From: a virus
DNA length: 64,000 nucleotides
Virus genome (UHGV): UHGV-1430452
Direction: 5' to 3' (one strand)
The notes beneath the pieces were generated by a model that saw only the letters and a program-made list of their open reading frames with translations, was not told the DNA's origin and made no database searches. This document shows positions 4,656-63,753 of this stretch, in pieces. Made by a program: the position numbers and the translations under genes. Position 1 is the stretch's first letter; the number at the start of each line of letters is the position of its first letter.

Positions 4656-4946
4656 CTATCGTAAAGATTTTGGGACAAGGCTTTTGATAATCTTTTTCTG
4701 ATGCTCGTCCAGATCGTGATATAGAGTGAAACCCGTTGCCCCATTATACTCATCGCCAAACTGTTTGTAGTACATAGATTGTTTCCATAACTCCGGATAC
4801 TCTTTTTTGTACTTTGCGAGTTCTTTTGCTTTCTTGTCATACTGTTTATCCGAAATTATATTATTATCTAACTCGTAATAAATATATGAATGAAGTATGA
4901 TATATCTTTGCAAGTAATCTATGTATTCGAGGGTTGTTAGTTCCAT
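4656..4946 (-). CDS. Stand-alone NAD-dependent DNA ligase domain-Ia-like protein (96 aa)
   Basis: LHSYIYYELDNNIISDKQYDKKAKELAKYKKEYPEL...FG follows the LigA N-terminal pattern H-x-Y-x-Y..D.P.IsD.eYD.L..EL..LE..yPEL....G. It overlaps the replicase stop by 10 nt. Confidence 0.5.
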   Translation of the reverse strand: MELTTLEYIDYLQRYIILHSYIYYELDNNIISDKQYDKKAKELAKYKKEYPELWKQSMYYKQFGDEYNGATGFTLYHDLDEHQKKIIKSLVPKSLR

Positions 4947-15262: not shown

Positions 15263-15303
15263 ACTCGGGAAAATTTTGATCTTGAAAAAATAGAAATCGA
15301 AAA

Positions 15304-15375
15304 GAAACAGTGTAGGACTCGAACCCACAACCTACAGATATAAGTCTGTTGCTCTACCAATTGAGCTAACTGTTT
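15304..15375 (-). tRNA. tRNA, probably Ile(UAU), with a 6-nt anticodon loop (72 nt)
   Basis: Hand fold: acceptor AAACAGT/ACTGTTT, D arm GCTC-AATTGGTA-GAGC, anticodon stem ACAGA/TCTGT with loop CTTATA, variable loop AGGTT, T arm GTGGG-TTCGAGT-CCTAC, discriminator C. Confidence 0.7.
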
Positions 15376-15380
15376 CTTCT

Positions 15381-46800: not shown

Positions 46801-48442
46801 TTTCTCTACCGCCAAGCTCGGTTATTCCATCGATAAGACCATCTATGTTGTCTTTTAATTTATTCGTAGATTCGTTTGCTTCATTTAGCGCTTTTAATGT
46901 AGCGTCATCAACGATACCTGTTATTTCTAAATCGTTAGCTTCCTGAAAAGCTTTAATAGCTGACTCTGTGGCACTTCCGAAAATTCCATCAGCACCAGAA
47001 TCGCCAATATCATAGTTAAGGCTTTGTAATGCTTTTTGTACTTTTGTTACGTCGTCTCCTGTATTACCTTTCGATAAACCGGCTTCGACTCCACTTAAAT
47101 CTACAAGTTCGCCTTTTAATCCGCTAACAGCTTCTTTTAAAATATCAGAAGATATGGCACCAGATTGAAAAGCTTTTTCTAGAGAACCATATTTTTTTAT
47201 GATCTCGTCCATATTAACGCCATGGTCCTCAGCAATCGATCTAACTTTTTCCTCAAAAGTATCGGTTTCTACACCAGCTTCATTTATTTTTTTTACAAGC
47301 TTATCCCAGTTAGAAGACATCGCGCCTTCCAATAATTCGTTACGAGATTTCGCTGATGATTCAACCATCTTTCCAATGGTATCTGAAATTCCAGTGAACA
47401 ATTCTTTGGAGTCTTCAAAATCACCGACAAGTATTCTCCAAGTTTGACCCCATCCAGATTGGAGAGATTCTTTTACCGTATCTATCAGCTGTGTGAATGT
47501 TTTTACTTTTGTAGCAGCGTCTTCAGCGTCCTTCGCTAAAGCCATAATATCGTTTGCTTGAGATTCGCTATAACCTTGGGCAATAAGATCGGCCTTACTA
47601 TATGCGCCAGACAATTGGTTAAGAGTTTCAGTTAATACCTCGGTCGTTAACCATTCACCTTTTGTTAGGCTTTCTCTAAAGCTGCCATATGTATCAATAG
47701 CTTGTTTAGCGCCTGTTCCCAAAAGTTCAGACGTTCTAACAAGTGCGTCCTGAAATACCTTACCACCCATACCGGCATTAACAACTGAGTTCCAGTCCAT
47801 AAGACTAACTTTACCTGCCGCCAATGCCTGAGAAAGCTGATACATCGCAGTAGATGCCTGTTGAGAAGTTGATCCAGAAACTGCGGCCAAGTTCGCAATA
47901 CCTTTAATAGCATTAACTGAGGTATCAAGTTTTACACCAGCTGCTGTAAACGTACCGATATTACGAGTCATTTCCGTAAAATTGTAAATCGTCTTATCGG
48001 CATATGTATTTAGCTCATCTAAAGCCTTATTTACAATATCAACATTAGTGCCTTCCTGCCTTGTATTGGATAGAATTGTCTGAATAGCACCAATCTGAGT
48101 TTCGTATTCTTGGAAACCGCTTTTAACCGGATCTATAGTTAATGCTGATATCATACGTTTACCAGTGTTAACAGCCTGGTTAGTGATGTTTGCTAAAGCA
48201 GTTACACCAGCGACCTGTAGTGCTGAAAATTTAGCCTGAACTGTCTCTATACCACTGCTCATTCCTGCAAAGCTAACACCTTTAGCAGCCTTACCGACAT
48301 TCTCCAACCCTTTGGAGGCACCAGATAGATTTAACTTTTGTTTGAGCTTATCGAGAGTTGACATACTGGTTGCGACTCCGCTCTCAAACTGCTTATTGTC
48401 GAACCGCATCTCCAAGACTCTGTTGTCAATAGTCGTACTCAT
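40895..48442 (-). CDS. Tape measure protein (2515 aa) with multi-TM core and three internal repeat families
   Basis: The call rests on size, position, the N-terminal TMP-like region, long Ala/Gly/Ile-rich hydrophobic stretches and the repeats annotated separately below. Confidence 0.85.
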   Translation of the reverse strand: MSTTIDNRVLEMRFDNKQFESGVATSMSTLDKLKQKLNLSGASKGLENVGKAAKGVSFAGMSSGIETVQAKFSALQVAGVTALANITNQAVNTGKRMISALTIDPVKSGFQEYETQIGAIQTILSNTRQEGTNVDIVNKALDELNTYADKTIYNFTEMTRNIGTFTAAGVKLDTSVNAIKGIANLAAVSGSTSQQASTAMYQLSQALAAGKVSLMDWNSVVNAGMGGKVFQDALVRTSELLGTGAKQAIDTYGSFRESLTKGEWLTTEVLTETLNQLSGAYSKADLIAQGYSESQANDIMALAKDAEDAATKVKTFTQLIDTVKESLQSGWGQTWRILVGDFEDSKELFTGISDTIGKMVESSAKSRNELLEGAMSSNWDKLVKKINEAGVETDTFEEKVRSIAEDHGVNMDEIIKKYGSLEKAFQSGAISSDILKEAVSGLKGELVDLSGVEAGLSKGNTGDDVTKVQKALQSLNYDIGDSGADGIFGSATESAIKAFQEANDLEITGIVDDATLKALNEANESTNKLKDNIDGLIDGITELGGREKIIEGLKNIFKFLGDIIKPIKEAFREIFPPTTVDQVVSMIDRFKAFTDTLKVSEGAASKIKSTFKGIFSAIDIVIEAFKAVGKGALDIIGNFTGLGGGILDATSSFGDFISNVRDSIVEGNLFGDAVDKIVGFLSNGISKIAEFGRSLIESFKISPTLQGFLGFFSGLWNTIKSVGAAIGEAFSDIGNMIADAFGKGDIFEVLNSGLFAGILLAIRNFIKGLSDPFEKISFLDNVKKILDGVKGSLESWQQNLKAGTLLKIAGAIGILAAALFVISGIDEDKLGSSLGAIGGLFVELISALAVLEKINSKSVKPLSGIVSSLSGIARTVQMIGLGAAILILAGAMKIIAGLDWNGVAKGLVGIGGMVAILVAAAKLMNTESKSITKFAGQMLILSAAIAALSGVAKILSSMSWEELAKGGAGILGIVAILVGAAKLMNTESKSITKFAGQMLIMSAAVGILAAVGKSLGSMSWNELAKGGAGILGIVTMLVLASKIMSKGSGSIAKFGGQMLLMASALAILTPVLKSLGSMSWESIGKGLVVLGIALVELSIGLKAMSGSLKGSAALVVAAAGLAILTPVLKSLGSMSWESIVKGLVTLAGAFVVIGVAGALLSPLTPAILGLSAAMAIFAVAIAGIGVGILALSAGFTALATAGTAGATALVASITVIITGILGLIPQIAEVIGRGIVEIAKVIGEYAPQLAESFLKLLLGVLDALEQYAPQIVDSLLGFIIGVINSLAEHTPELISAIMNFVGQVVKGIVDSIGNLDMDTMLKGIGAFGVIGILMKVFAGAGALAGPAMTGVLAVGAVIAEIAVLLAAIGGLSKIPGFSSLVEAGGGLLGKIGNAIGKGIGAFIGGIGEGITGSLPEIGQNIADFMDKLAIASENASGIKSGSFDGVSDLMSAMAEIGFTTVGTSIADIFTLGGTSMEKFETDGVAFFNAMKAISQASAGITIDEAAMGAVINVATKLSELQSSLEPIGGVMDWFSGRDDLATFGTNVGQFIFSMKNAFLGLDGVSFNTEALTSIITGAAELSKLQSSLEPIGGVISWFKGRDDLGTFGESVGEFISSMKVAFSDLEGITLNTEGLTAIISATTILANLQSSLEPIGGVISWFKGRDDLGTFGTNVAQFIFSMKTAFQSLDGVEFNSEALTTIIDGSTKLAGLQSALEPIGGVISWFKGRDDLGTFGVNIGLFIGSMTKAFSSLDGVKINTEAIGIIIDAATKLSGLQSSLENIGGVVDWFTGRDDLGTFGSSVASFMGSMKTAFADLGDTKIDDDSITSIINAATKLAGLQSSLENMGGVIDWFTGKDDLGTFGENIGQFATAMGKLKTGMGEDGISEAVVTSVTNAGSAIIALQEALPEEGWFDGKMNLEEFSKYVEKFSSAMTTFSTDAANINSDGINTAITAAYRIKNLITALADLDASGVSSFAGVGAGDGHLVNIGQAIGKFGESVADIDIAKVNTAVSVALRLKSLIASLVGLDTSGIENFKINSIGKAMQDYGNSVKDMDPGIVSSSISSANRLRNFVSSLTGLDSSGVSNFKIGSIGTTLKSYSKSVENVDSGKVTSSVTAANRLKTFIQGLSSLDSSGVSNFKIGTIGSTLKSYSDSVAGINVGSISSSITAATKIKNFISSLAGLNTSGVASFKTAVSTLGQTSMNSITKSFSGSTSKMSNIGSNLITSFSNGLKSKQALVTSTATNIINSMLKAISSKRSVFGTNGVALMTQFVNGMRSRASSVVNTTTSILSSAVSSTRGYYSSFYSSGSYVASGFVAGIQANIWSAANAAASMAAAASAAARANLAIHSPSRVFMKIGSYVPIGFAKGIGMFGGLVKQSISRMSDNAVNSTQTAMSRISSLLDGDINTQPTIRPVLDLSDIKSGASAINGMLNGTPTLGVMSRLNTINSMMGERIQNGSMDDVVSAINRLRKDLGNVGGVSYNINGLTYDDGSNITEAVKEIVRAAVIERRI
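41850..42560 (-). repeat. TMP repeat family 2: ~49-aa units (...L.GLD(S/T)SGVSNFKIG(S/T)IG..LKSYS.SV...), 4-5 copies
   Basis: Seen in the translation and as recurring DNA blocks. Boundaries are approximate. Confidence 0.7.
42650..43900 (-). repeat. TMP repeat family 1: ~63-aa units centred on LQSSLEPIGGVISWFKGRDDLGTFG, 6 copies + 1 degenerate
   Basis: Near-identical DNA blocks, e.g. gtgccgaggtcgtctctacctttaaaccagcttattactcc at about 43241 and 43621. Boundaries are approximate. Confidence 0.8.
44990..45800 (-). repeat. TMP repeat family 3: hydrophobic ~55-60-aa units each containing SMSWE(E/S)(L/I).KG, about 5 copies
   Basis: The translation shows SMSWEELAKG, SMSWNELAKG, SMSWESIGKG and SMSWESIVKG plus LDWNGVAKG. 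Boundaries are approximate. Confidence 0.7.
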
Positions 48443-48831: not shown

Positions 48832-50550
48832 TTACAGTAGCTCGTTAACTCGATCCTGAATTTTCTGAATCATGTTGTGATCGTATCCAGCTTTTGCGAG
48901 GGCATTAATTCGTGCATCTCCATTACCGTATTTTCCGGCAATGACATCACGGGCTACATTATCAATCACTATCTGATTTACTTTCTTCTGCACAGTGTCT
49001 GGATTATAACCAGCTTTCTTGAGAGCAGACACACGAGCATCACCATTACCCCATTTTCCAGCTAAAACCTCTTTAGCTACTTCATCGATAGATTTAGTAG
49101 GTTTTGCAGGAGCTTTAAGTAGTTCATTCACTTTCTTCTGTACAGTGTCTGGATTATAACCAGCTTTCTTGAGAGCAGACACACGAGCATCACCATTACC
49201 CCATTTTCCAGCTAAAACCTCTTTAGCTACTTCATCGATAGATTTAGTAGGTTTTGCAGGAGCTTTAAGTAGTTCATTCACTTTCTTCTGTACAGTGTCT
49301 GGATTATAACCAGCTTTCTTGAGAGCAGACACACGAGCATCACCATTACCCCATTTACCGGCGATTACTTCTTTAGCAATTTCATCGATAGATTTGGTCG
49401 GTTTTGGCGTAGATGTAGGTTTAGATGTTGGTGCTGGTGTGGAAGAACTTTTCGCATATTTTGGTCTAGCAAAACCACGAATCATACCCCAGCCAACCGG
49501 AATGGTACGTCTTGCTACTGCTTCTCCTCTGTTACCTTCAATCGCTGTGATTTGTCCGTTTGAAACAGATTCCACATACCCGATATGATCAGAATATCCG
49601 TCGTTTGGCTGAGTCTTATCATCCCAGTTATAAACAATTACATCACCAGGTTTCGGAGTAATGGTGCCGTCCTCGACCCAAATGCCTTTCTGCTTAAAAA
49701 TCTTAATATGTTCCTCACAACCAACTTCTGTACCGATGAGATCGACTGCTCCGGATTTGATAGCTGCTGCTGATACTGTACAATCACACCATTCATCATT
49801 AGGTTTAATAGCGTATCCGCGAGCCAAAGGTTTGTGAGAATTATAGATGTTAAGAATCTCAATATATTTACCGTTAGCTTCAGAATAACCGAGCCAACTT
49901 CTCATAACATTAAGAACGTCCTGTGCTGTTACACCCAATTCCGTATCCTCCTGTTTTCCGTAAAAATAGTTCATGTCGACTTTACCTTTAATACCGCCTA
50001 CAGTTCCGGAACTCGTATACTGATGAACCAAACAACCGTAATCTGCTTTTCCGTTATAATCAGCGAGCCAGAATTTGTACTGTTTAATCAGATCATGATT
50101 ATACCAATTTCGATAGTAGTCGATATTTGCGTAGATTCCAGCTTTGTATCCCTGAGATTCTACGTACTCACAAAAGATTCTTGTAAAGTTATTACATTCA
50201 TTTTTACCAAGTCTCACACCTTTTGCAGCTGCTTTCTTGACTGTGTCATATTCGAAATCTGCGAAGATGATTGTGTTTTTATCAAGACCAGCTTTTCTAA
50301 CAACATCAACACAGAATTTTGCTTCGTCAAGTGCGCCCTGTTCGTTTAAGGCATAAATAAAATGGTAAGTTCCTATAATCGGAATCTTGTTGTTTTTACA
50401 CCCATTGACATACTCATAGAATTTTGAATCTACTGTCTTCCTGTAAGAAGATCTAAGAATCGCGAACTCTATTCCGGAGGACTTGACTTTAGAAAAATCT
50501 ACATCTCCCTGCCAATAGCTGATATCAATTCCTTTCTTCACAATCATCAT
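48832..50550 (-). CDS. Peptidoglycan hydrolase: GH25 muramidase + NlpC/P60-or-CHAP-like cysteine peptidase + 4 CW_7 (Cpl-7) cell-wall-binding repeats
   Basis: The N-terminal GIDISYWQGDVDFSKVKSSGIEFAILRSSY is GH25-like. The centre has WCDCTVSAAAIKSG...DHIGYVESV...IEGN. The C-terminus has 4x SIDE(I/V)AKEV(I/L)AGKWGNGDARVSALKKAGYNPDTVQKKVN. Confidence 0.85.
   Translation of the reverse strand: MMIVKKGIDISYWQGDVDFSKVKSSGIEFAILRSSYRKTVDSKFYEYVNGCKNNKIPIIGTYHFIYALNEQGALDEAKFCVDVVRKAGLDKNTIIFADFEYDTVKKAAAKGVRLGKNECNNFTRIFCEYVESQGYKAGIYANIDYYRNWYNHDLIKQYKFWLADYNGKADYGCLVHQYTSSGTVGGIKGKVDMNYFYGKQEDTELGVTAQDVLNVMRSWLGYSEANGKYIEILNIYNSHKPLARGYAIKPNDEWCDCTVSAAAIKSGAVDLIGTEVGCEEHIKIFKQKGIWVEDGTITPKPGDVIVYNWDDKTQPNDGYSDHIGYVESVSNGQITAIEGNRGEAVARRTIPVGWGMIRGFARPKYAKSSSTPAPTSKPTSTPKPTKSIDEIAKEVIAGKWGNGDARVSALKKAGYNPDTVQKKVNELLKAPAKPTKSIDEVAKEVLAGKWGNGDARVSALKKAGYNPDTVQKKVNELLKAPAKPTKSIDEVAKEVLAGKWGNGDARVSALKKAGYNPDTVQKKVNQIVIDNVARDVIAGKYGNGDARINALAKAGYDHNMIQKIQDRVNELL
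48975..49410 (-). repeat. Tandem 150-bp near-identical coding repeats (CW_7 units plus linkers)
   Basis: The blocks at 49111..49260 and 49261..~49350 are identical by eye. The unit beginning at about 48975 is nearly identical. A fourth, divergent unit lies at 48835..48970. Confidence 0.85.
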
Positions 50551-52966: not shown

Positions 52967-54904
52967 TTAGGCAGTTTCTTTCACGAATTCAAGAGCTACT
53001 GCGGAATACGGTTTAACAAGTGTACCGGAGCAACGTGTCTCCATAAGATACTTCTGCTTGTTGTAATCGATATCGAAATCATCGAAGAAGTTGATTTCTC
53101 CACCCTTATCTGTACCTACGTTGTAATCTTTAAGATTTACATAGATACCAGCAAGCTCATATGTCTTATTTTCATCGTCTGTTCTTGTAAGACCTTCCAT
53201 TACCGGAACCGGAACGATTTCTCTTACGCGAAGAGATGCTGCAAGTTTCTGTACGCTATCATAGATAACACGTCCGTTTGTATCTTCAATGAGCAAGCAA
53301 TCTGTAAGCATATCCTCAGACATGAACATATCAGGGTTGCCAGATCCTTTATAATTCTTTCTGGATTTGATGCAAGCTTTGATGAATGCCTTAGCTTTCT
53401 CTTCAGCAGTAGCGGAATCGCTTACATTGATAGCTGCTTTAACTGTGAAAAGATCTTCCATCTTCCAGATAGGTCTGATGCAGTCCTCATTGATTTTATC
53501 GTTAGCCTCTTCAACCGGATCTCTTCCATCACCGATAAGGAATGCGCGAGCAAGTTCCTCATCAAGCATCATACGAACTTCTCTCTTCAGCCATGGAAGA
53601 ATATCGAAATCTGTAATATCAAGCATGTCATCGCGATCTAATGCCTGTTTCTTGTATACAGTTGTTGGATTTGTTACACGTTTGAGAAGCTTAAATACTT
53701 CTTCAATTTTAAGTTTGCCTTTCTGGTATCCCTTTGCTCTAGCCTGTGCTGCTGTGATGTCAGCAAAGATAGTTTTGATACGGGAGAACGGTGTGTGATG
53801 TACTCCGCCAAGTACTTTTGATACCCAATCGTCATTACGTTTGATAAATTCCGGTTCATTGTTAAGATTCTTTGCATCCGGGAATAAGATGTCAATGTCT
53901 GTGATACCATGAGCAAGCACTGCCTCTTTAAGAGAACCTGAGCGTTTCGCATCTTCGAAAATCGCAGTCATCTCGGAGTGTGTAAGCACATCATCTGCCA
54001 TAGGGGTTTCATTGTCGAATACGTTGTGTTTCATATTTTTGTTTCCTCCTTCATTTTCATCATCTTCTTCGGTTTCAACACCAGCATCTTCTAATGCCTG
54101 TCCGATCATAGCGTACACAACAGTTTTCTGTTTCTCAGAAAGAGTGTTGAATACATCAGCTACAGTTTCTTCTTTGTTTTCTCCCTTTGTTTCTTCCTCG
54201 GCATGTTTTACTTCTTCCTCAGAATGGGTTACTTCTTCTTTGTCTGGTTTATCATCGTTTTCTTCTTTGATACCAGCATCTTCTAATGCCTGTCCGATCA
54301 TAGCGTACACAACAGTTTTCTGTTTTTCAGAAAGAGTGTTGAATACATCAGCTACAGTTTCGTCCTTATTTTCTTCGGCATTATGTTTTTTGGTTTCTTC
54401 TGCCATTTTTTCTTCTCCTTTCTCAGAAGTATCTGCGTGGAACAATGACTCCACATTTTCGATATATTCGCCTGAGCTGATATATCCCTCTTCATAAGAA
54501 TCTTCGCCATGCATCATGACAGACTCTATTACTGCGCCTGGATTAGCACCAGCTAAAACCAAACTAAGCTCACGAATGACTCCGTGAACTACATTACTTC
54601 CCTGCTGTTTAAGTCTGTTGGCATATATGGAAAATCTATTCACATCACCATGCTGAACCAGCAATTTAGCATTCTGCCCTGATTCCGTATCGTTAAATGT
54701 GCAATATGCATACACACCTTCGTCCCTGTTTTCCAGCAAGGCATGACCGAGCACTTCATCTACGCTATTATGCTGATGATTCCAAACTAACGGTACAGTT
54801 TCACCATCGCACTCTTTGAATGCATCTTTCATGATGACTCTACCGTCCGCACACAGCATGTCAGCTTTAGTAGCCCAGCCAGAACAATCATATGACTTAG
54901 CCAT
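52967..54904 (-). CDS. Prohead serine protease (HK97/S78-type) - linker - major capsid protein fusion (645 aa)
   Basis: The N-terminus has VPLVWNHQHNSVDEVLGH...VIRELSLVLAGANPGA (S78-like). The middle is an acidic duplicated linker. The C-terminal ~330 aa is HK97-fold MCP-like, ending ...GTLVKPYSAVALEF. Confidence 0.75.
   Translation of the reverse strand: MAKSYDCSGWATKADMLCADGRVIMKDAFKECDGETVPLVWNHQHNSVDEVLGHALLENRDEGVYAYCTFNDTESGQNAKLLVQHGDVNRFSIYANRLKQQGSNVVHGVIRELSLVLAGANPGAVIESVMMHGEDSYEEGYISSGEYIENVESLFHADTSEKGEEKMAEETKKHNAEENKDETVADVFNTLSEKQKTVVYAMIGQALEDAGIKEENDDKPDKEEVTHSEEEVKHAEEETKGENKEETVADVFNTLSEKQKTVVYAMIGQALEDAGVETEEDDENEGGNKNMKHNVFDNETPMADDVLTHSEMTAIFEDAKRSGSLKEAVLAHGITDIDILFPDAKNLNNEPEFIKRNDDWVSKVLGGVHHTPFSRIKTIFADITAAQARAKGYQKGKLKIEEVFKLLKRVTNPTTVYKKQALDRDDMLDITDFDILPWLKREVRMMLDEELARAFLIGDGRDPVEEANDKINEDCIRPIWKMEDLFTVKAAINVSDSATAEEKAKAFIKACIKSRKNYKGSGNPDMFMSEDMLTDCLLIEDTNGRVIYDSVQKLAASLRVREIVPVPVMEGLTRTDDENKTYELAGIYVNLKDYNVGTDKGGEINFFDDFDIDYNKQKYLMETRCSGTLVKPYSAVALEFVKETA
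54080..54169 (-). repeat. Direct repeat copy 1 (90 bp) inside the protease-capsid linker
   Basis: One mismatch by eye against 54272..54361, offset 192 bp. It encodes ETVADVFNTLSEKQKTVVYAMIGQALEDAG. Confidence 0.85.
54272..54361 (-). repeat. Direct repeat copy 2 (90 bp) inside the protease-capsid linker
   Basis: See copy 1. Confidence 0.85.
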
Positions 54905-55253: not shown

Positions 55254-56525
55254 TCATAGGTCCGAAATTGGTGTGTCACCTAATGAGGGTTCTTCCTCTG
55301 GTGGAATATCTTCTTCACTTATATCCGGAGTTGGATTCAATCCAGTTCCTGTTTGATTGATGTTGCTATTTACTAACTGGTCAGCTTTTGGATCATCTGA
55401 TGGTTTCATACCAATAATCTGTCGAACCTCATTAGCTGTAAGTATTTCATTCTGCGTAAACACTCCAGCGATTTCAGCCAGTTTACTAAGAGGAACGAGT
55501 CTAAACGAATCTCTGAAGAATTTGATAGTCTGATTCTGAGATCGTGCTGTCTTTGTTAAAAACTTGCGTTTCATCTCATCGACGATTGCTGCGACAATTG
55601 GCTCAATAGTCCTTGAATAGTAGTTCAGCATTTCTTCTTCGCTCGCTGATCCATCGAGTATCGCCTGTGTGATTCCAAGCTGGCTGTATAGTTGAGCAGT
55701 TAGATATTCCACTTGTTTCATCAGGTTATTGTCGAGAGGTCTGTTTAACTGCACTATCTTTTCAGTTCCATCAACATAGCCAATACCGTAAGTGGAACCG
55801 CTTAGCTGTTGCTCCAGGTCCGCACGTCTTTCATTAGCTAGTTTTCGCCGAGCTTCAGATTTAATAGAATATGGTAGCTGAATAATCATGTCCAATTTTC
55901 CACTACTGATACGTTCGTCCATTCTATCGAGAAGGGCAAGTTTTCGCGTAAGACGCTGCATGGTAGAATTATGCTCATTGATAACCGCATATAAAGGATT
56001 CTCAACTATAGCTACCATTTTCTTTTCAAGCTTAATGTCTTCTCGTTCTCCTGTTCGTTCATTGTAAACTCTAACTTTCACATGGTTTGGATACCATTCA
56101 AGAATTTTACCAGTTCGCATGGAAAGTATTTTATATGATTCAGTTTGAGATGGATCTATATCTGTATCAACAGGAACTATTGCTACACAGCCCTCGTCAA
56201 GCATAGACATAACGATATCTTGTGTGAATGCTCTACCAGTCTGATCGATATTCGCTTCAAGATTCAGACATTTATTAAGAGTCGAATCAATCTTTTCTAT
56301 AAATCTACCGTTACTGTCTATACGACAGTGATTAATATTTATAGAAGAGACATCCAAAGCTATTCGATTAAAAATAGCAGTAACAACAGATCGCTCATTA
56401 CCCCTAGTGAATCTCGGCCTATCCGGTCTATTTGAATATCCTGGACCAATGTTACGAGAGTCATATGTCGGATCTCGGTTCATGAAAGCATTCCACGAAT
56501 GCCGAAGTCTATCTATAAAATCCAT
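55254..56525 (-). CDS. Portal protein (putative)
   Basis: 423 aa, lying between the terminase and the protease-capsid gene. The call rests on position and size. No family was confirmed. Confidence 0.6.
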   Translation of the reverse strand: MDFIDRLRHSWNAFMNRDPTYDSRNIGPGYSNRPDRPRFTRGNERSVVTAIFNRIALDVSSININHCRIDSNGRFIEKIDSTLNKCLNLEANIDQTGRAFTQDIVMSMLDEGCVAIVPVDTDIDPSQTESYKILSMRTGKILEWYPNHVKVRVYNERTGEREDIKLEKKMVAIVENPLYAVINEHNSTMQRLTRKLALLDRMDERISSGKLDMIIQLPYSIKSEARRKLANERRADLEQQLSGSTYGIGYVDGTEKIVQLNRPLDNNLMKQVEYLTAQLYSQLGITQAILDGSASEEEMLNYYSRTIEPIVAAIVDEMKRKFLTKTARSQNQTIKFFRDSFRLVPLSKLAEIAGVFTQNEILTANEVRQIIGMKPSDDPKADQLVNSNINQTGTGLNPTPDISEEDIPPEEEPSLGDTPISDL

Positions 56526-56539
56526 TTTGATTTTACCTC

Positions 56540-57136
56540 CTATGGTGTTGATGGATTAAGACTTTCAGCGATTTTAGCGTCTATGTATGAATGTATTTCA
56601 GCTATATCCGCTTCCGTCCAATAATCAGTACCTCTGACAGGTGTCTTCCCATCAGTACCAGGATCTCCTTTTGGTCCAGCATCACCAGTATCACCTTTTG
56701 GTCCCTGAACACCCTGTTCACCTTGAGGTCCGGTTAATCCTGTATCTCCCTTTGGACCCTGAATACCTTGTTCACCTTGAGGTCCAGTAGCTCCGGTATC
56801 ACCTTTTGGTCCCTGGATACCCTGTTCACCTTTCGGGCCTGTAGCTCCGGTATCACCTTTCGGACCTTTAAGACTAGCTAACCATTCAGTCTCGCTTCCT
56901 TCGAAACCAGTAGAAAGCGCTACTTGATAAGCAGAATCACCTGGATCTCCTTTTTCACCAGGAGGGCCAGGAGTGGTTGAACCAGTTCCTCCGTTAGTAA
57001 TGAGCTCGCATAATTCCCAAAGCAATTCTTCAGCTCTAGACTGAGGTCTCGGCAATCCTTCAGTACCTTTCTGTAAGATAGTATTTTTCATATATTCTTC
57101 AAATCTACTATCCGGTATGTATGTTTCATCGATCAT
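56540..57136 (-). CDS. Collagen-like repeat protein (198 aa)
   Basis: About 110 aa of G-X-Y (GPKGDTGATGPQGEQGIQ repeated with 54-bp DNA periodicity), flanked by short non-collagen ends. Confidence 0.8.
   Translation of the reverse strand: MIDETYIPDSRFEEYMKNTILQKGTEGLPRPQSRAEELLWELCELITNGGTGSTTPGPPGEKGDPGDSAYQVALSTGFEGSETEWLASLKGPKGDTGATGPKGEQGIQGPKGDTGATGPQGEQGIQGPKGDTGLTGPQGEQGVQGPKGDTGDAGPKGDPGTDGKTPVRGTDYWTEADIAEIHSYIDAKIAESLNPSTP
56641..56971 (-). repeat. G-X-Y collagen-like coding repeat, 54-bp periodicity
   Basis: Repeated ggtccctg(a/g)ataccctgttcacc... blocks on the plus strand. Confidence 0.8.
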
Positions 57137-57154: not shown

Positions 57155-57400
57155 TTAGAGTTCAATTCCTTCAATGGCTGCTCTTACCTCAAGACATCTG
57201 AGATACTCGCCCATGTAACGTTTCTGCTCCTGAAGTTTTGCTATCGGGCAAGTTGGTTTGAAGTCGAGAACTCCTGCTTCATGTTTTACAAGCATCTGAT
57301 GTAATTTGTCATATCGAATCTTTGTCTGATAATACTCAGCTTTAAAACGATCTTTATAATCGGAACTATTCATAAGTTCAATCGTGTCTTTTAACTCCAT
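57155..57400 (-). CDS. Hypothetical protein (81 aa)
   Basis: ORF track; GGAGGTAAATTCAAA SD context. Confidence 0.6.
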   Translation of the reverse strand: MELKDTIELMNSSDYKDRFKAEYYQTKIRYDKLHQMLVKHEAGVLDFKPTCPIAKLQEQKRYMGEYLRCLEVRAAIEGIEL

Positions 57401-57489: not shown

Positions 57490-59223
57490 CTATTCAAAAG
57501 CATCCTTGTTCAGTTTATAAGCAACGAACGCATCCATAAGTGCTGCAACGCAGTCAATCTTATGCTCTCGTTTGCGTTTATAAAGTTTTCTGTTACCGTT
57601 GGTGTCTTCAAGGGTGATACAGTTTCCCATAGCAAACGACATGATCTCTTCATCGAATCGAAGCATTCTCTCTTCAGAAAGGTTCTTTAATTCTCCAAGA
57701 GGAATAGATTCTGTCTTTGCTCCCTGAATTACTTTCTCAATACCAAACGGACCATTCTCGGTTTCCCATCTATTAACAAATTCCTTTGCTCCATACGGGT
57801 CAAAGCCGAAACACCGAACATCGTAATCACTATCGATAATATGTTTATCCAGATCGTCGTAAACTTGCATCATATCGAGGATCGCACCGTCGAGAACTAT
57901 CAAACTACCTTCATTCATAAACTGATCGTATTTCGTCCGCATAGCTGCTGGTAATTTCATCAGAGTTAATGAAGAAATATAGTTTCTAGTCTTAATACCG
58001 AACGTTCCATCCTGTAAAGGGAACATAAATGAGAATGAGCAAAAGTCGTCTCCCTGCGATAAGTCTGCTCCCATAGCACAAGGTAATCCCCAGTAATCTC
58101 TACGTCTATGAGGTATTGTCTCTTCATAAGTAAAGTAATAGGTATAACCTTCCAACGGGATTCCAAATCTTTTCGCAAGAATATCGTTCTTTGCTGCTGG
58201 GTTCTGTTCGGCTCTTTCCACGTCAAGCTGATATGCTTCAGGGCTAACGGTCTTTCCAATATTCGGATTAGCCTTAAGCCACATTTCTGGATTTCCTACT
58301 TCCTCAATATCATCGAGCTTATACCACCAGATTGATACGTGAGGATTAGTGTACTCGTCTCGAAGAATCTTAGATAATTCCATTTTGATTGTGTCGCCGC
58401 TACCATTTCGTACAGTACCTTCTGAACTGGTTGCCACAATAAGATAATCATCATTTTTTGAGGCACCCTGTTCAACAGCACCAACGACGTCTTCTCGTAC
58501 ATCTCCTGATAGCCATTCATCTATAGTGGAGATCTTATCTCTTCGTGACTGCAATTTATCGATGGACATTGGTAGAACTTCGATTATTGAATTTGTAAGG
58601 AAGTTCTCTACACCCTTTTTCGTACTAGCTAACTTCTGTCGATTCGCCCTTGAGCCTGTAGTATTCTGTAAAGAGCCCTCTGTTAAGAATTTAAACAAAG
58701 GACCTCTAGCTCTTGCTATAGCTGTACGAATAGGAGCTAATGTTGCTTCTGATTGTCTCATTGTCGGCGCGGTTACTAATTGCTGAGTAGTACTCGTGTC
58801 GACATTTAAAAAATAAGCCTGAATACATGCCGCATACATCGATTTAGCAGCACCTCTGGCTACGATCAAATACTGTTTGTTAACCAGTCGTTTCTTAATT
58901 CTCTTGGTAACATATCGTCCTTCGTCGTAGTCATAGACTGATCGTTCAACGAAGTAATACCAACCGAAAATCTGTTCCGCCCAAAGTTTAAACGAATCAA
59001 GTAAATGTAGATCTTCGCCATCAGTTAATGTGAGTTCGTTCTCACAATAATTAATAAAACCCTGGATCGCTTGGTCGTCATACCAAATTCCAGGGTTAGC
59101 TATAAGATCATCTATTCGATTCATCTCCATCGAGATTTCTTTACATATTGGGATTTCTCCTCGCATGACCGCCTCTCTAAAGCGGCCGTAATATTTCGGA
59201 ACAGCCGTGTTTGAAAGACTCAT
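57490..59223 (-). CDS. terL: Terminase large subunit
   Basis: 577 aa. ATPase-like LIVARGAAKSMY (Walker A-like) and YLIVATSSEG. The C-terminal nuclease-like region has GADLSQGDDFCSF and KIDCVAALMDA. Confidence 0.85.
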   Translation of the reverse strand: MSLSNTAVPKYYGRFREAVMRGEIPICKEISMEMNRIDDLIANPGIWYDDQAIQGFINYCENELTLTDGEDLHLLDSFKLWAEQIFGWYYFVERSVYDYDEGRYVTKRIKKRLVNKQYLIVARGAAKSMYAACIQAYFLNVDTSTTQQLVTAPTMRQSEATLAPIRTAIARARGPLFKFLTEGSLQNTTGSRANRQKLASTKKGVENFLTNSIIEVLPMSIDKLQSRRDKISTIDEWLSGDVREDVVGAVEQGASKNDDYLIVATSSEGTVRNGSGDTIKMELSKILRDEYTNPHVSIWWYKLDDIEEVGNPEMWLKANPNIGKTVSPEAYQLDVERAEQNPAAKNDILAKRFGIPLEGYTYYFTYEETIPHRRRDYWGLPCAMGADLSQGDDFCSFSFMFPLQDGTFGIKTRNYISSLTLMKLPAAMRTKYDQFMNEGSLIVLDGAILDMMQVYDDLDKHIIDSDYDVRCFGFDPYGAKEFVNRWETENGPFGIEKVIQGAKTESIPLGELKNLSEERMLRFDEEIMSFAMGNCITLEDTNGNRKLYKRKREHKIDCVAALMDAFVAYKLNKDAFE

Positions 59224-59266: not shown

Positions 59267-59839
59267 TTAACGACCATAACGAGCATTGTTCAATATTCTT
59301 GACACATAGGTTCGTCCAGTCTTTTTGTATGCTTCTTGAGATTCGAGCAACATAGCATCTGCCTTATCAGATAATCTTGAAGCATCTTCGAACATTTTAT
59401 TATACTCCTTAGCATCTGCTGTTTTGTTCTGTGCAGAAGCTATAAATCTTGAAACTGCGTTTTTACCAAGTTTCTTGCGCTGCTCTTTAACCTGATTCCA
59501 CTTTGCATCAGCAACATCACTAGCTTTTGATGCTGCATCAACCTTTTTAGAATAATCTTTTACTGCTGATTTTTTGGCATCTACTTTCGCTTTCTTTATG
59601 TCGGCTTTTGCTTCTCTTAAAGAAGCCTTAGCTGCATCTCTTTGGATCTTATTACCTTTTCGAATAGCTCCAATACCGTTCAACTGACCAGAATTCCTAG
59701 CTGCTTTACGAGCTTCTAATCCATCAGCTCTGGCTTTCTTAGAGGCTTGTCTAAAGGTCGGCTGATCGCTTCTCCTTCTAACTCCCCACTTCATGCCTTT
59801 TACACCGTAGTGCATTAATTTGTCATCATAGTATCCCAT
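59267..59839 (-). CDS. Paralogue 4 of the HYGVKGMKWG(V/I)RR N-terminal-motif family (190 aa, Lys/Ala-rich)
   Basis: N-terminus MGYYDDKLMHYGVKGMKWGVRRRSDQ. Confidence 0.65.
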   Translation of the reverse strand: MGYYDDKLMHYGVKGMKWGVRRRSDQPTFRQASKKARADGLEARKAARNSGQLNGIGAIRKGNKIQRDAAKASLREAKADIKKAKVDAKKSAVKDYSKKVDAASKASDVADAKWNQVKEQRKKLGKNAVSRFIASAQNKTADAKEYNKMFEDASRLSDKADAMLLESQEAYKKTGRTYVSRILNNARYGR

Positions 59840-59868
59840 TTTGAATTTTCACCTCTTATCTCAAATAG

Positions 59869-61005
59869 TTATGTGTTCCCGGACAGCATCCCAATGATTT
59901 CTCTATCCGATAGTTTCGTGTTCGGATGTTGTTTACGATAATTATTTATCGCTTTTGTGTTAAAAGCATATGATACTCCTACTGGAACAGTTGCTCCCAA
60001 AGCATACGTAGCTCCCTTTTTTGAGCCAGTTATTATTTTGTTGACGTAGTCTTCAGCTTTCTGTATTTTCTTAGCTTGATCAAGATTCTTTGAAATCTCA
60101 TCAACCGTTAATTCTCTAAAATTAGTTACAGAAATCTTTCCTTTCGCATCAAATACTATGAGAGGATTTTTTGTCTTGTAGTCATTAAACTTCATATCGT
60201 TAATGTCTTGAATAGCATTATATCCTTTTGATTTCATAGCACTATAAAATGTTTTGGATGAATATGAATCATGATTCCCAGCTAATTTAGAATTGAAATT
60301 TTCATACAGTTTTGATAACTCACTATCTGTATACGTTCCGAATTTAGCAAATCTTATAGGCTTTTCATTCGAACTTATAGAGCTTGGTAGATTATGTACA
60401 TACTCTGCGAACTTTTTATCATTCTTATAAAGATCTTTGAATACTTTCTTCGCATTATTCTTAGAAGCAACTTTGACATCATCTTTAACTAATAAAGACA
60501 TCACATATGCTTTTCCAGTCTGTTGATATCGTTCTCTACCAAGTTTACCTGCATATTTTATGTTATCGGTTTTCTTGTATGAAGCGAAGAAATTATCGTA
60601 TAACTTTCCTCCGGTATCTTTCATCTCTACTCGTTGCAACAACTTTCCAGACTTTATAGTTTTATCACAGTAATCTTTAATGTACTTATTTGTTGCATAT
60701 GCAGCTATCGAAGCAACTGTGATACCGGCTGTTATGGCTATGATTTTCTCAGTTTTGATACGTCTATCAGCCGCCATCTTAGCCTGTTTAGGACTCATCC
60801 CTTTGCTAATATACTTAGATTCAATCCTCGATCTGTGACTCGATCTATTTGTGCTCTTATCGGATTCGTTTTGGTATTTATTCTTTCCAGCATTAGTGAG
60901 AGAACCGTCTTTATTTTGGTAACGTCTTATTCCCCATTTCATGCCTTTTACACCGTAATGGTAGAGTTCATCTGTAGAAGTTATTCTTGAAATTGCATAC
61001 TCCAT
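59869..61005 (-). CDS. Paralogue 3 of the same family (378 aa, one TM segment)
   Basis: DELYHYGVKGMKWGIRRYQNKDGSLTNAGKNKYQ. The C-terminal YSAMKSKGYNAIQDINDMKFNDYKTKNPLIVFD aligns with paralogue 2. Confidence 0.65.
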   Translation of the reverse strand: MEYAISRITSTDELYHYGVKGMKWGIRRYQNKDGSLTNAGKNKYQNESDKSTNRSSHRSRIESKYISKGMSPKQAKMAADRRIKTEKIIAITAGITVASIAAYATNKYIKDYCDKTIKSGKLLQRVEMKDTGGKLYDNFFASYKKTDNIKYAGKLGRERYQQTGKAYVMSLLVKDDVKVASKNNAKKVFKDLYKNDKKFAEYVHNLPSSISSNEKPIRFAKFGTYTDSELSKLYENFNSKLAGNHDSYSSKTFYSAMKSKGYNAIQDINDMKFNDYKTKNPLIVFDAKGKISVTNFRELTVDEISKNLDQAKKIQKAEDYVNKIITGSKKGATYALGATVPVGVSYAFNTKAINNYRKQHPNTKLSDREIIGMLSGNT

Positions 61006-61022
61006 TTTGACTCACCTACCTC

Positions 61023-62081
61023 TTAACTCAAATACTTATCAAGTTTACGGTTCACATAAGAATCGCACTCCGACACACTCTTCGTTCCGAGCTTAGATAC
61101 GAAACCAACTGTATTAGCTCCGATTTCCTTAACGATTCTTTCTGAATTGTATTTTCGATACAGCTTGTCTACAATTTTAGGATTCGCTTCGGTTACAGAC
61201 TGAAGTTTCACCGAATCTGTATCAAACACAATCATAGGTCTTTTCGCATGATAACTTGAATACTCCTTATCGTTATAGTCAAGTAAAGCATTATAACCTT
61301 TCTTCTTTAACTCTGAGTAGAAACGATTTTGTGCAGCTATCTCTTGTTGATTATGGTTTACAAGGGATAGATTCAGAGCCTTATAGATAGCCACCTTTTC
61401 AGAATTTCTAAGTTTACTTGGATCTTTCTCCAAAGCATTTTGAGCTTGTTTAAATAGAACCTGTTGAGTAGGTCGCCGCATCTTCTCTTTAGAGTCAGCT
61501 ATCGAAGCCTCTACATTCTTCTTAAACTCTGGCTCTTTCAATAAGTTTGCGGTTATGTAGCCAGCGTTCTCATCTGACGGAACTTTCAACTTCTTCACAG
61601 TTTCCAGTTTCAACTGATAAACCTTCATATTATTGCTTTTATCTCTTAGAGATTTTGCAACGTTGAAATCTTCCTCACTGCCGGTTGCCTCAGCCTGTTT
61701 CTCAGCACGTCTTGCATCCGAAGCAGCTCTACTCGTAAGATTCTTACCAAATAATCCGAGATACTTATCCATGTCTTTCTTTTTATATGTAGCGTAGAAT
61801 GCGAAATTCTCGAATTCTTTTGAAGTCTGGATTCGAGCGAATGTAGTACCTTTTCTTAAATATGTATCAACGTACTGCTTACCTGTGACTTGAGTTTTGA
61901 CAGTGTTTTTTAATTCAGAAACTTTCATACTCATTAACGTAGTCTTTTTCTGTGTGATATGAGTATCTGAAGAATTCTGATATCGTTTCTTACCAGATGG
62001 TGTCAATGTTCCGTCAGCATACTGATATCTCCTAACACCCCACTTTTGACCTTTAACGCCGTGATGATAAAGTTCTTCCAT
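61023..62081 (-). CDS. Paralogue 2 of the same family (352 aa)
   Basis: MEELYHHGVKGQKWGVRRYQYADGTLTPSGKKRYQ. The C-terminus has YSELKKKGYNALLDYNDKEYSSYHAKRPMIVFD. Confidence 0.65.
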   Translation of the reverse strand: MEELYHHGVKGQKWGVRRYQYADGTLTPSGKKRYQNSSDTHITQKKTTLMSMKVSELKNTVKTQVTGKQYVDTYLRKGTTFARIQTSKEFENFAFYATYKKKDMDKYLGLFGKNLTSRAASDARRAEKQAEATGSEEDFNVAKSLRDKSNNMKVYQLKLETVKKLKVPSDENAGYITANLLKEPEFKKNVEASIADSKEKMRRPTQQVLFKQAQNALEKDPSKLRNSEKVAIYKALNLSLVNHNQQEIAAQNRFYSELKKKGYNALLDYNDKEYSSYHAKRPMIVFDTDSVKLQSVTEANPKIVDKLYRKYNSERIVKEIGANTVGFVSKLGTKSVSECDSYVNRKLDKYLS

Positions 62082-62084
62082 AAC

Positions 62085-62630
62085 TTACTTACCACTTAGC
62101 GCTTTGATGGCTAAAGCAATGCTTAATGCCGACCCGGTTACTGCTAAAACATCACCGGTGGTTTCTAGCATTCTACTAGCATACTCGCGTCCTTTCGTGG
62201 TTTTTTGAGGAGCAAACATATCATTATATTGTTTCTCCAAAAGAGCTCTATTAATCTGATCACGCATTTCTTTATCGGTCATGTTGCTTAAGTCCATCTT
62301 TTGTTTCGGATTATTTCTGATAGACTTATCGGTCATGGTCTTTATATTACGGCTCAGTCCAGCAGTAGCATCGGTCAAAGATTTGGTTCTTTCCAAGTCT
62401 TCTTTAACATATCGTCTAGCATCTGCTATGTTGTCAGTTCGACCGTTCTTTTTAGACTGCTTATAATAAGTACCAGTAGACTCATCATACTTATTAAATT
62501 CTTTTTCTCTAGAGTCTCTTTCATATCTCTTCTGACCTTTTTCAGTAAGAGTACCATCCTTGTTCTGGTATCTTCTTACTCCCCATTTCATGCCTTTAAT
62601 TCCATGATGATAGAGTTCATTATTGTCCAT
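62085..62630 (-). CDS. Paralogue 1 of the same family (181 aa, C-terminal hydrophobic segment)
   Basis: MDNNELYHHGIKGMKWGVRRYQNKDGTLTEKGQKRYE. Confidence 0.65.
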   Translation of the reverse strand: MDNNELYHHGIKGMKWGVRRYQNKDGTLTEKGQKRYERDSREKEFNKYDESTGTYYKQSKKNGRTDNIADARRYVKEDLERTKSLTDATAGLSRNIKTMTDKSIRNNPKQKMDLSNMTDKEMRDQINRALLEKQYNDMFAPQKTTKGREYASRMLETTGDVLAVTGSALSIALAIKALSGK

Positions 62631-62985
62631 TTTGAATTACCTCCTTTCCAGTTTGTTCTGCCTCCACATTAAGTCTCCATTCAAGCTCGTTGATCATCTG
62701 TTTCATGGCTTCCATTACAGCAGAGCTAAGAGGAGGATCGAAAATAAGTCTAACCTTTAGATACATATAGGTTTTTACAGCCTCGAAGTTTTTGTTATCG
62801 GTCGGAAGAAATTCATCCCATGTAGTAAACTTATCCGTGATATGAAATCCATTACTAGGACCAACTCCCAACTGACTAAGTATCATGAATACAGAATTGA
62901 TATGCATGATGATATCAGAATCAAAGTGCTCATAATCTTCTGTTATACCGAGCATCTTTTTAACTGATGTAAGTATACTTTCCAA
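62620..62985 (-). CDS. gp6-like head-tail connector / DNA-packaging family protein (tentative)
   Basis: The N-terminal ILTSVKKMLGITEDYEHFDSDIIMHINSVF resembles the l..vK..LgI...d..fD..l motif of Phage_connect_1-type proteins. Confidence 0.4.
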   Translation of the reverse strand: MESILTSVKKMLGITEDYEHFDSDIIMHINSVFMILSQLGVGPSNGFHITDKFTTWDEFLPTDNKNFEAVKTYMYLKVRLIFDPPLSSAVMEAMKQMINELEWRLNVEAEQTGKEVIQNGQ

Positions 62986-63002: not shown

Positions 63003-63416
63003 CTATCGTTTCCAGGGACAAGTGTCATTTGGTTTTCGTTCTATTGGTTCTGTTATAAGTAAGCTCTCGTCTCCGTAGTGAATAGCGTTGTGGGTATTGA
63101 GTGTTGTAGAAATTACATTCTCTGGATCGAATACTTTCGGATCTCGTAGAAGAACGTCTTCTACTGAAATTGGATTTATATGATGCACGAGGATCTTACC
63201 CACTATCTCATAACCTTCACAGGCCAAATCACAGCCATTATCTCGAATAATTATTTCGTTACGAAAGCGCTTCCATTCTGTCGTACGATAAAGCATCTGA
63301 TTTAAATATCGATCATAGCCGAATGTCTCAACACCAACTTGTCCGCCGAGTTGTAAGTATCTAAAACGATCTAGAAAAGTTGGAAGCTTAATCAATTCGG
63401 AATATGTTCTATTCAT
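63003..63416 (-). CDS. HNH endonuclease
   Basis: CDLACEG...HHINPIS....NVISTTLNTHNAIH is an HNH motif. ORF track 63003..63446. The ATG at 63416 overlaps the upstream stop (ATGAATAG). Confidence 0.75.
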   Translation of the reverse strand: MNRTYSELIKLPTFLDRFRYLQLGGQVGVETFGYDRYLNQMLYRTTEWKRFRNEIIIRDNGCDLACEGYEIVGKILVHHINPISVEDVLLRDPKVFDPENVISTTLNTHNAIHYGDESLLITEPIERKPNDTCPWKR

Positions 63417-63753
63417 CTTCATACTCCTCCGGATCTCCCTGACCATTGTAATTTCTGAAAGCCTTCATAGCGTTCTCAACGAGAACCTTGTATTCTTTCT
63501 CATCCTCTATAGCATTGGTTTTAGCTTCTAACAGTTTATTCTCTTTTTTAAGTTTCTCTTTCTCTAACTCTGCTTTTGTAGTACCAAGTTTCAGAAAATG
63601 TGTGATGACCTGAGAAGAAGCAGTGCCTTCTATTAACTGCCTTTCAGCTAGGTCCACTGCCAATGAAATCATCTGGTTTTCTCTAGCTTCTGGAGATAAA
63701 GCAGGTCTCATCTTCTTACTTTCTTTCGATGAGCTTTTGCTTAGTTTAGGCAT
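63409..63753 (-). CDS. Putative terminase small subunit / packaging accessory protein
   Basis: 114 aa, the first gene of the packaging block, next to an HNH. The ...ENQMISLAVDLAERQLIEGTASSQVITHFLKLGT... segment is HTH-like. The assignment is by position and memory only. Confidence 0.35.
   Translation of the reverse strand: MPKLSKSSSKESKKMRPALSPEARENQMISLAVDLAERQLIEGTASSQVITHFLKLGTTKAELEKEKLKKENKLLEAKTNAIEDEKEYKVLVENAMKAFRNYNGQGDPEEYEDE

Follow-up and report, generated by a model that had tools for sequence, protein, structure and literature searches.

Four tandem paralogues sharing the DUF7211 motif

The viral genome UHGV-1430452, analysed here as a single stretch of 64,000 nucleotides (the window), carries four tandem minus-strand open reading frames (ORFs), named A to D, whose products begin with a nearly constant peptide and continue into bodies of differing length and composition. 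An earlier note, made from the DNA letters alone, had described these ORFs as a constant tag on variable bodies, fitting either capsid-targeted internal or ejected proteins or a set of polymorphic effectors, and all four are present as described (Table 1). The shared peptide corresponds to the Pfam family DUF7211 (PF23847), a 25-position model of unknown function with a curated gathering cut-off of 27 bits, which is matched by the N termini of all four proteins with E-values of 7e-11 to 3e-6, B barely clearing the cut-off (27.1 bits). A six-frame hidden Markov model scan of the whole 64-kb window recovered exactly four copies. The earlier statement that no characterised function was known for the motif holds in that none has been assigned, but the motif itself had already been catalogued. 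A full-text literature search returned no paper naming the DUF7211 motif or family, NCBIfam contained no model for any of A–D, and searching the PDB with profiles of the motif and of the C family gave chance-level matches only.

In A, B and C the motif takes a long form, ELYH(H/Y)G(V/I)KG(M/Q)KWG(V/I)RRYQxxDG(T/S)LTxxGxx(R/K)Y, as had been quoted, and the copy in D is indeed shortened, matching the core only and ending after RRR. Alignment statistics establish the paralogy, with BLASTP E-values among the four proteins ranging from 1e-32 to 2e-6 (B–C 1e-32, A–C 2.5e-20, A–B 4e-16 and D–C 5e-10). The bodies behind the motif diverge, and without the N-terminal segments similarity persists between B and C alone, through the common C-terminal domain that had been noticed in two of the proteins. 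The DNA coding for the motif copies is only 61–89% identical, with many synonymous differences, so the peptide appears to be maintained by selection; recent gene conversion, considered as a source of the motif identity, is ruled out by the same diverged synonymous sites. An AlphaFold model of C gave a predicted local distance difference test score (pLDDT) below 50 for residues 1–24, which include the motif core, and of 56–76 for residues 25–44, and the core looks unstructured on its own in this model.

The four genes are closely packed, with spacings of 3 nucleotides (nt) between A and B, 17 nt between B and C, 29 nt between C and D, and 43 nt between D and terL, and a Shine-Dalgarno sequence lies 5' of every A–D start codon. 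Promoter-like and terminator-like sites in the block are not enriched relative to shuffled sequence. Taken together, these features indicate that A–D, terL and the flanking head genes form one operon, as expected from the earlier claim that the block is expressed with the head genes, and the overlap of A with the connector gene suggests translational coupling. The block had been placed between genes labelled TerS-like (small terminase subunit, TerS) and HNH on one side and terL on the other; the terL side is correct, but on the HNH side the connector gene sits between HNH and A, and the gene labelled TerS-like matches only a PHROG of unknown function.

Table 1. Positions in the window of the DUF7211 genes, their motifs and domains, and the surrounding head genes
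Feature	Position	Strand	Description
Gene A	62085..62630	(-)	181 aa, pI 9.7; DUF7211 41.7 bits; phrog_32444
DUF7211 motif of A, long form	62523..62621	(-)	residues 4-36: NELYHHGIKGMKWGVRRYQNKDGTLTEKGQKRY
C-terminal hydrophobic helix of A	62097..62159	(-)	residues 158-178: TGDVLAVTGSALSIALAIKAL
Gene B	61023..62081	(-)	352 aa, pI 9.7; DUF7211 27.1 bits; phrog_7502
DUF7211 motif of B, long form	61980..62078	(-)	residues 2-34
B domain homologous to the ART-fold domain of C	61194..61862	(-)	approximately residues 74-296; BLASTP against C 7e-14, N-terminal segments removed
Gene C	59869..61005	(-)	378 aa, pI 9.8; DUF7211 40.4 bits; phrog_7502, 3.8e-35
DUF7211 motif of C, long form	60874..60972	(-)	residues 12-44
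Predicted transmembrane helix of C	60679..60744	(-)	residues 88-109
Globular α/β domain of C	60106..60669	(-)	residues 113-300; predicted ADP-ribosyltransferase-superfamily (ART) fold
Gene D	59267..59839	(-)	190 aa, pI 10.2; DUF7211 42.8 bits
DUF7211 motif of D, short form	59771..59824	(-)	residues 6-23: DKLMHYGVKGMKWGVRRR
phrog_4259 gene	63409-63753		conserved small gene in TerS-like position
HNH endonuclease gene	63003-63446
Head-tail connector (Phage_connect_2)	62620..62985	(-)	11-nt overlap with A; conserved upstream neighbour of the DUF7211 block
Large terminase gene (TerL)	57490..59223	(-)	downstream neighbour; relatives carry DUF7211 genes on either side of TerL
Portal gene	55254..56525	(-)	possible docking partner
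S78 prohead protease, acidic scaffold and major capsid protein in one 645-aa gene	52967..54904	(-)	candidate docking partner and processing enzyme

Behind its N-terminal motif, protein A has a small β-meander, three long helices and, at the C terminus, a hydrophobic helix rich in Gly and Ala, and its AlphaFold model is mostly helical and of moderate confidence (mean pLDDT 68.5). The C-terminal helix, which lies within a helix predicted at 146–179, has a 19-residue Kyte-Doolittle mean of 1.8 and is kept in the family alignment. Together with residues 88–109 of C it brings the number of proteins with a transmembrane-like helix to two, where one had been counted before. Nor is A simply one of the variable bodies, as had been supposed: it is a highly conserved core member of the family, with more than 100 cluster representatives 66–77% identical over the full length, and a member of approximately 165–180 aa follows the connector gene in most related loci. 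As a conserved, helical core unit with a hydrophobic C-terminal helix, A may be membrane-active.

The position and size of A also raise the question of whether it is the missing TerS, with DUF7211 as its DNA-binding element and the other paralogues as derived copies. A is approximately 180 aa long, basic, helical and conserved, it lies directly upstream of TerL in many loci, and no TerS is firmly annotated in these phages. Such a role is nevertheless very improbable, as A matched no TerS or other terminase model in Pfam, PHROGs or NCBIfam, its hydrophobic C-terminal helix is untypical of a TerS, about 10 loci have no motif gene at all upstream of TerL, and the separate phrog_4259 gene occupies a TerS-like position. 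The motif-bearing ORF7 of Lactococcus phage 1706, moreover, is labelled structural, unlike a TerS.

Protein C begins with the DUF7211 motif and a helical region, passes through a transmembrane helix into a globular domain, and ends in a further hydrophobic segment and a conserved tail. In its AlphaFold model, based on a 91-sequence alignment (mean pLDDT 79), a long helix spans the transmembrane segment, and the α/β domain at residues 113–300, with pLDDT mostly above 90, is predicted to adopt the split β-sheet fold of ADP-ribosyltransferases. Protein B is made up of the motif, a linker and the domain in common with C, without a transmembrane segment, and its ART-like fold would follow from homology to the modelled domain of C. 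Homologues of C number 2949 at E ≤ 1e-3, and in BFVD individual Arthrobacter, Gordonia and Streptomyces phages of the supercluster described below each have several paralogues with the C-type domain. Residues Asp147, Tyr151, Tyr193, Asp196, Asn238, Tyr262, Asp267 and Asp270 of the C domain are invariant, and Arg125, Glu127 and Ser181 are conserved in 87, 79 and 83 of the 91 sequences, respectively, as judged from the alignment, and no ExE motif is evident. By comparison with ART toxins such as diphtheria toxin, MbcT and other RES toxins, and the Tse6/Tne2 NADases, B and C have no sequence match to ART, RES or PARP Pfam models, and a catalytic triad (H-Y-E, R-S-E or R-E-S) is not recognised with confidence in the C domain. 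The ART-fold domain of B and C may be a host-modifying or NAD-consuming enzyme.

Protein D carries the short-form motif followed by a body without a hydrophobic segment that is, as had been noted, rich in Lys and Ala (15.8% each), and this Lys/Ala-rich unit may bind DNA. Both C and D match phrog_35934, annotated 'virion structural protein'.

Conserved location and variable bodies in related phages

The window belongs to a siphovirus of the Lactococcus phage 1706 type. Its order of phrog_4259 gene, HNH, connector, A–D, TerL, crAss001_48-like gene, collagen-like gene, portal and protease-scaffold-capsid fusion agrees with that of phage 1706 (orf4, HNH, orf6, orf7, TerL, portal and protease-capsid), and the same head-gene order is found in Rhodococcus phage ReqiPepy6, Streptomyces phage TaidaOne and Gordonia phage Fazel. 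A preprint has placed the 1706-like phages and Faecalibacterium phage FP_oengus in one supercluster that extends across Firmicutes and Actinobacteria (10.1101/842583). At the nucleotide level, a search of a phage collection returned only one distant uncultured relative, with the match limited to terL.

Loci were retrieved with the motif from IMG/VR (80) and from bacterial genomes (73), and the 77 motif-bearing loci of at least 15 kb were compared. A TerL homologue was present in 74 of the 77, a portal in 71, and the protease-capsid fusion and the connector in 70 each, with up to 70 loci containing both of the latter in the order seen in the window. All motif ORFs in these loci, which carry 1–7 motifs each, share the strand of the head genes, and nearly all occupy the slot connector-[D]n-TerL-[D]n-portal-([D])-protease/capsid, where [D] denotes a DUF7211 ORF and the position between portal and capsid is used only occasionally. 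Because the same slot is occupied across relatives, the A–D block is not an insertion among packaging genes, as had been assumed; virtually all relatives keep the family in this slot, and DUF7211 genes typify the 1706-like head operon. Most hosts named in the genome records belong to the gut Clostridia (Lachnospiraceae, Oscillospiraceae, Blautia and Faecalibacterium), and since several of these records are cultured isolates, some of the phages are prophages.

Few or no head-gene matches were found in six of the 77 loci, two of which were inspected. In locus L147 (9980-15433) a 141-aa DUF7211 gene lies near an integrase, with three DUF6353 paralogues in tandem coming after it, and in L135 (9986-12189) a 147-aa DUF7211 gene follows tail-fibre-like genes and lies beside a serine recombinase.

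The closest named counterparts of the block are 1706 ORF7 and ReqiPepy6 gp013 and gp015–gp021, which are true homologues in the same slot with the same motif. ORF7 contains two DUF7211 motifs, at approximately residues 31–45 and 175–192, so that units are fused in one gene in phage 1706, whereas ReqiPepy6 has eight motif-bearing genes and the window four separate ones; the bodies also differ. The recorded function of these homologues goes no further than 'structural protein', and a literature search for proteomics of the relatives yielded nothing usable.

A profile of the motif matched 39,643 cluster representatives at E ≤ 1e-3, and 21,607 at E ≤ 1e-10, among 1.84 billion proteins; the same profile run against a word-indexed database returned mostly short fragments and was uninformative on architecture. 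The family motif spans approximately 33 residues, (D)(Y/E)L.H(H/Y)G(I/V)(K/L)G(Q/M)(K/R)WG(V/I)RR(Y/F)QN.DG(S/T)LT.(A/E)G(K/R).RY, with an acidic stretch before it, and the core L.H.G.KG.KWG hardly varies from the phages of Firmicutes to those of Actinobacteria. Family members occur either as tandem genes or as fused polyproteins with 2–5 motifs. Among the best 150 matches, 98 contain two motifs, 36 three, 14 four and two five, with lengths of up to 1569 aa and a median unit length of 213 aa. In one representative, P0278, an A-type body continues straight into a second motif, and at the corresponding point in the window B starts three bases past the end of A; by its sequence, P0278 points to the interconversion of separate genes and polyproteins. 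The internal recurrence of the motif, together with LigT domains located upstream of it, shows that it is not the strictly N-terminal tag of the earlier description. Very long polyproteins, reaching 1569 aa and five motifs, are found among P0241–P0390 (for example P0242, P0244 and P0251). By eye, the polyprotein units include Gly-rich linkers and coiled-coil-like Lys/Glu/Ala stretches, and P0251 has an apparent Rossmann-like 'GDAPGID' domain that Pfam does not recognise.

The bodies attached to the motif are extremely diverse, and single-linkage clustering of the 395 unique bodies from the retrieved loci gives 127 clusters, including 100 singletons. A transmembrane-like segment is present in approximately 28% of bodies. 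Most match no Pfam family, and those that do include GNAT acetyltransferase, CW_7 repeats, 'papain fold toxin 1, glutamine deamidase' and a sigma-70 region 4 domain. GNAT sits right behind the motif in P0276 (DUF7211-GNAT) and in TaidaOne gp10 (DUF7211-GNAT-DUF7211-body). The earlier interpretation is partly supported in that the bodies include toxin-type or host-modifying enzyme folds and the family is almost confined to the 1706-like head operon.

A set of proteins encoded in this position might instead be structural or assembly components of the head rather than delivered effectors, acting in head completion (in association with the portal or connector) or as auxiliary scaffolding, with the motif as a contact to the portal, connector or capsid protein. 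The high identity of A (66–77%), which nearly always adjoins the connector gene and overlaps it, is in keeping with such a role, as are the many low-complexity, charged and helical bodies, which resemble scaffolding proteins, and the 1706 ORF7 label, which reads 'structural' only. However, both copy number (1–7 motifs per locus) and bodies vary among close relatives to a degree that is unusual for essential parts, the GNAT, deamidase, ART-fold and 2H domains have no obvious role in assembly, and the capsid gene already has its own scaffold segment. Consequently, a purely structural function is considered unlikely.

A possible route into the phage head

Proteins A–D are strongly basic, with net charges of +11 to +32 and pI values of 9.7–10.2, and the motif alone contributes +4 to +8. 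The head proteins encoded in the same operon are of opposite charge, with net values of -25 for the scaffold segment (residues 151–292), -50 for the entire protease-capsid fusion, -9 for the portal and -8 for the connector.

In the polyproteins, a site of the form H[SADNT][DESA] is located 5–26 residues upstream of the internal motif at 106 of 216 junctions (49%), compared with 169 of 5076 background windows (3.3%), a large effect with p-values inflated by the relatedness of the sequences. His sites are also found in the scaffold of the window (FH156ADTSE, KH174NAEE, TH227SEEE and KH234AEEE) and at the scaffold/capsid boundary, where MKH293NVFDNE is followed by LTH309SEM; the boundary pattern, MKHN(V/I)F(D/E) then (S/T)HS(E/D), is kept across the 45 homologues inspected of 113 aligned. 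Stand-alone proteins start with M(S/D)(D/N), where the polyproteins have H(S/D)D. On the strength of these sequence patterns, the His-containing sites may be sites of prohead-protease cleavage. The scaffold also contains an exact 30-aa duplication, ETVADVFNTLSEKQKTVVYAMIGQALEDAG, which stems from a 127-nt direct repeat that is 90% identical (54056-54182 and 54248-54374).

These junctions allow the motif to be viewed mainly as a processing signal, that is, as an element by which the prohead protease recognises its substrate, or by which unit boundaries are marked, rather than a targeting element, tandem genes then being a 'pre-cut' form of the polyprotein. The 2–5 motifs of polyproteins do lie at unit boundaries, the His sites enriched just 5' of internal motifs resemble those of the scaffold and the scaffold/capsid boundary, and the starts of the stand-alone proteins parallel the polyprotein H(S/D)D. 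The putative cleavage site does not coincide with the motif, however, and the distance between the two varies. A protease site would need neither the much greater length of the 33-residue motif nor its degree of conservation, and stand-alone genes, whose products require no cutting, keep the motif as well, making a role in processing by itself improbable. Processing and targeting are compatible rather than exclusive, as the T4 targeting peptide both targets and is cleaved.

There is about an even chance that DUF7211 serves to incorporate internal or ejected proteins into the head, as a module analogous to MuF fusions or the T4 targeting peptide. In such a scheme, each unit would comprise a DUF7211 mini-motif of approximately 20–33 residues and a variable body, and the motif would bring the unit into the procapsid during assembly by attaching to a conserved, acidic part of the head, for which the scaffold part of the fusion, the portal and the connector are candidates. 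Where units are fused, as in relatives, the prohead protease would probably cut at the His-containing junctions within the procapsid; the units would then stay in the head with the DNA and exit with it at infection. This interpretation best fits the location in the head operon, the tag-plus-cargo layout, the MuF-like cargo types, the charge complementarity, the junction sites and the behaviour of the motif as a docking peptide, its core being predicted to be unstructured alone yet near-invariant across paralogues and phages while synonymous sites have diverged. The structural annotation of 1706 ORF7 was likewise counted in its favour. Of the earlier interpretation, the constant element on variable bodies destined for the capsid, or serving as polymorphic effectors, is thus the part best supported by comparison, without strict N-terminal placement or insertion.

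The principle of head-packaged effectors carried on a constant module is well established, as are the DUF7211 entry and the phage type. The ART fold, the 2H phosphoesterase and, in Nudix fusions, GNAT are known or inferred to be packaged into heads as fusions to MuF, portal or polyvalent proteins (PMC5512222, PMC9503650). Like the MuF/SPP1 gp7 fusions, the DUF7211 set combines a constant module with highly variable bodies encoded among terminase, portal and capsid genes, shares the ART-fold, 2H phosphoesterase and GNAT cargo types while also having a polymorphic-toxin-type domain, and includes multi-domain polyproteins of the kind thought to be processed. It differs in that its constant part is a peptide of approximately 20–33 residues, predicted to be unstructured alone, whereas MuF is a folded domain, and in that this peptide precedes every unit, with 1–7 copies per phage. 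Scanning the head-module ORFs of the window, including A–D, against Pfam revealed no Phage_Mu_F (PF04233) domain, so the usual adaptor for packaged effectors is absent here. The DUF7211 set may therefore be said to share the layout of a MuF fusion, with a constant module and variable effectors beside portal and terminase genes, and would work like one without being a member of that family; packaging has been demonstrated for SPP1 and Mu, and for DUF7211 we infer it from comparison.

The capsid-targeting sequence of T4 is an N-terminal peptide of approximately 10 residues found on the basic proteins IPI–III and Alt, the latter an ADP-ribosyltransferase, and is cut by gp21 at (L/I)xE; T4 itself is a myovirus with a separate scaffolding core. 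The two systems are alike in placing a short N-terminal peptide on unrelated basic proteins, in ART-type cargo and in a connection with the prohead protease. The peptides do not resemble each other in sequence, however, the DUF7211 motif being 20–33 residues long with another consensus; the window encodes an S78-family protease in fusion with the capsid protein, and cleavage, if any, seems to take place upstream of the motif. A similar docking logic is known from the cargo-loading peptides of encapsulins, short conserved Gly-rich sequences that dock unrelated cargo to the inner face of an HK97-fold shell, an analogy without sequence relationship to DUF7211.

Several observations weigh against head incorporation. 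Identity of approximately 70% across many phages fits A better as a structural part than as an arms-race effector. The motif is not always N-terminal to its cargo, with a 2H/LigT phosphoesterase upstream of it in ReqiPepy6 gp013 and Fazel gp13, and the DUF7211 genes of L135 and L147 lie away from recognisable head genes. The 'structural protein' label given to 1706 ORF7 by its depositors is a database annotation alone, the junction statistics carry the relatedness noted above, and docking partners are at the level of candidates, structure searches having returned no close solved relatives for the connector, the protease-capsid fusion or the portal. Lastly, the transmembrane-like helices could instead mean that these are membrane proteins made in the infected cell.

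This last point leads to a further alternative, in which the DUF7211 proteins are late, non-virion products that act in the infected cell in superinfection exclusion, lysis timing or host takeover, and the motif binds membrane, cell wall or nucleic acid. Besides the transmembrane-like helices of A, C and other bodies, some members have CW_7 cell-wall-binding repeats, holin and endolysin genes are nearby in actinophage relatives, the genes in L135 and L147 adjoin recombinases rather than head genes, and the Gly/Lys/Arg/Trp-rich motif weakly resembles a basic rRNA-binding stretch of eS30 (E 0.52, not significant). In nearly all loci, however, the genes are tightly packed in with those for connector, TerL, portal and capsid, share their strand and show no promoters or terminators, the 1706 homologue is annotated as structural, a signal peptide is lacking and the motif is hydrophilic. 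An exclusively intracellular role is accordingly judged quite improbable.

A broader form of the head-incorporation reading can be put forward more tentatively, and is doubtful enough to fall short of an even chance: that DUF7211 is a portable capsid-loading tag, a short peptide sufficient to dock any attached protein inside the procapsid. Fast-evolving polymorphic enzymes (ART-fold, GNAT, deamidase and 2H phosphoesterase) would then be injected from tandem genes or protease-cut polyproteins throughout a clade of approximately 40,000 protein clusters, in gut and soil siphoviruses of Firmicutes and Actinobacteria. If so, the tag would do in viruses what cargo-loading peptides do in encapsulins, and it would add a new adaptor that depends on neither MuF nor the T4 targeting sequence.

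Should the motif load proteins into the head, it would represent a third, previously undescribed packaging route for injected proteins beside the T4 targeting sequence and MuF, and the siphoviruses using it, very numerous and for the most part uncultured, would be those of Clostridia in the human gut and of Actinobacteria in soil. A role would be found for tens of thousands of 'hypothetical' proteins, the bodies would point to a store of enzymes that modify the host or counter its defences and arrive ahead of phage gene expression, and a short transferable tag would become available for foreign cargo in phage capsids. The constant peptide, the polymorphic bodies, the apparent interconversion of genes and polyproteins, and junction sites that resemble the capsid maturation site are already of value for annotation.

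Other features of the window

The connector gene lies upstream of the terminase and not after the capsid gene, a placement kept in 70 of the 77 loci. Directly downstream of TerL is an 81-aa protein (57155-57400) that matches the Pfam family crAss001_48 with an E-value of 2.4e-20. Between TerL and the portal is a 198-aa collagen-like (G-X-Y) protein (56540-57136) with 54-nt tandem repeats at 56688-56860, and relatives often have DUF7211 genes in the slot of this collagen-like gene.

A 1408-aa ORF (4937-9163) was considered as the YonO-like RNA polymerase described for this phage group, possibly bearing the tag, and rejected, being a primase/PolB-like fusion without the motif; it comprises a P4-type primase/DUF5906 region and a weak PolB-like C-terminal match. 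A tRNA-like gene with an unassignable anticodon was identified by ARAGORN on the minus strand (15303-15376). An endolysin, a 572-aa protein with GH25, CHAP and four CW_7 repeats (48832-50550), is encoded within the tail module, between tail-assembly-chaperone-like genes and the gene for a 2515-aa tape measure protein (40895-48442), and in the relatives L001 and L002 the same slot is occupied by Amidase_3 or Amidase_2 genes.

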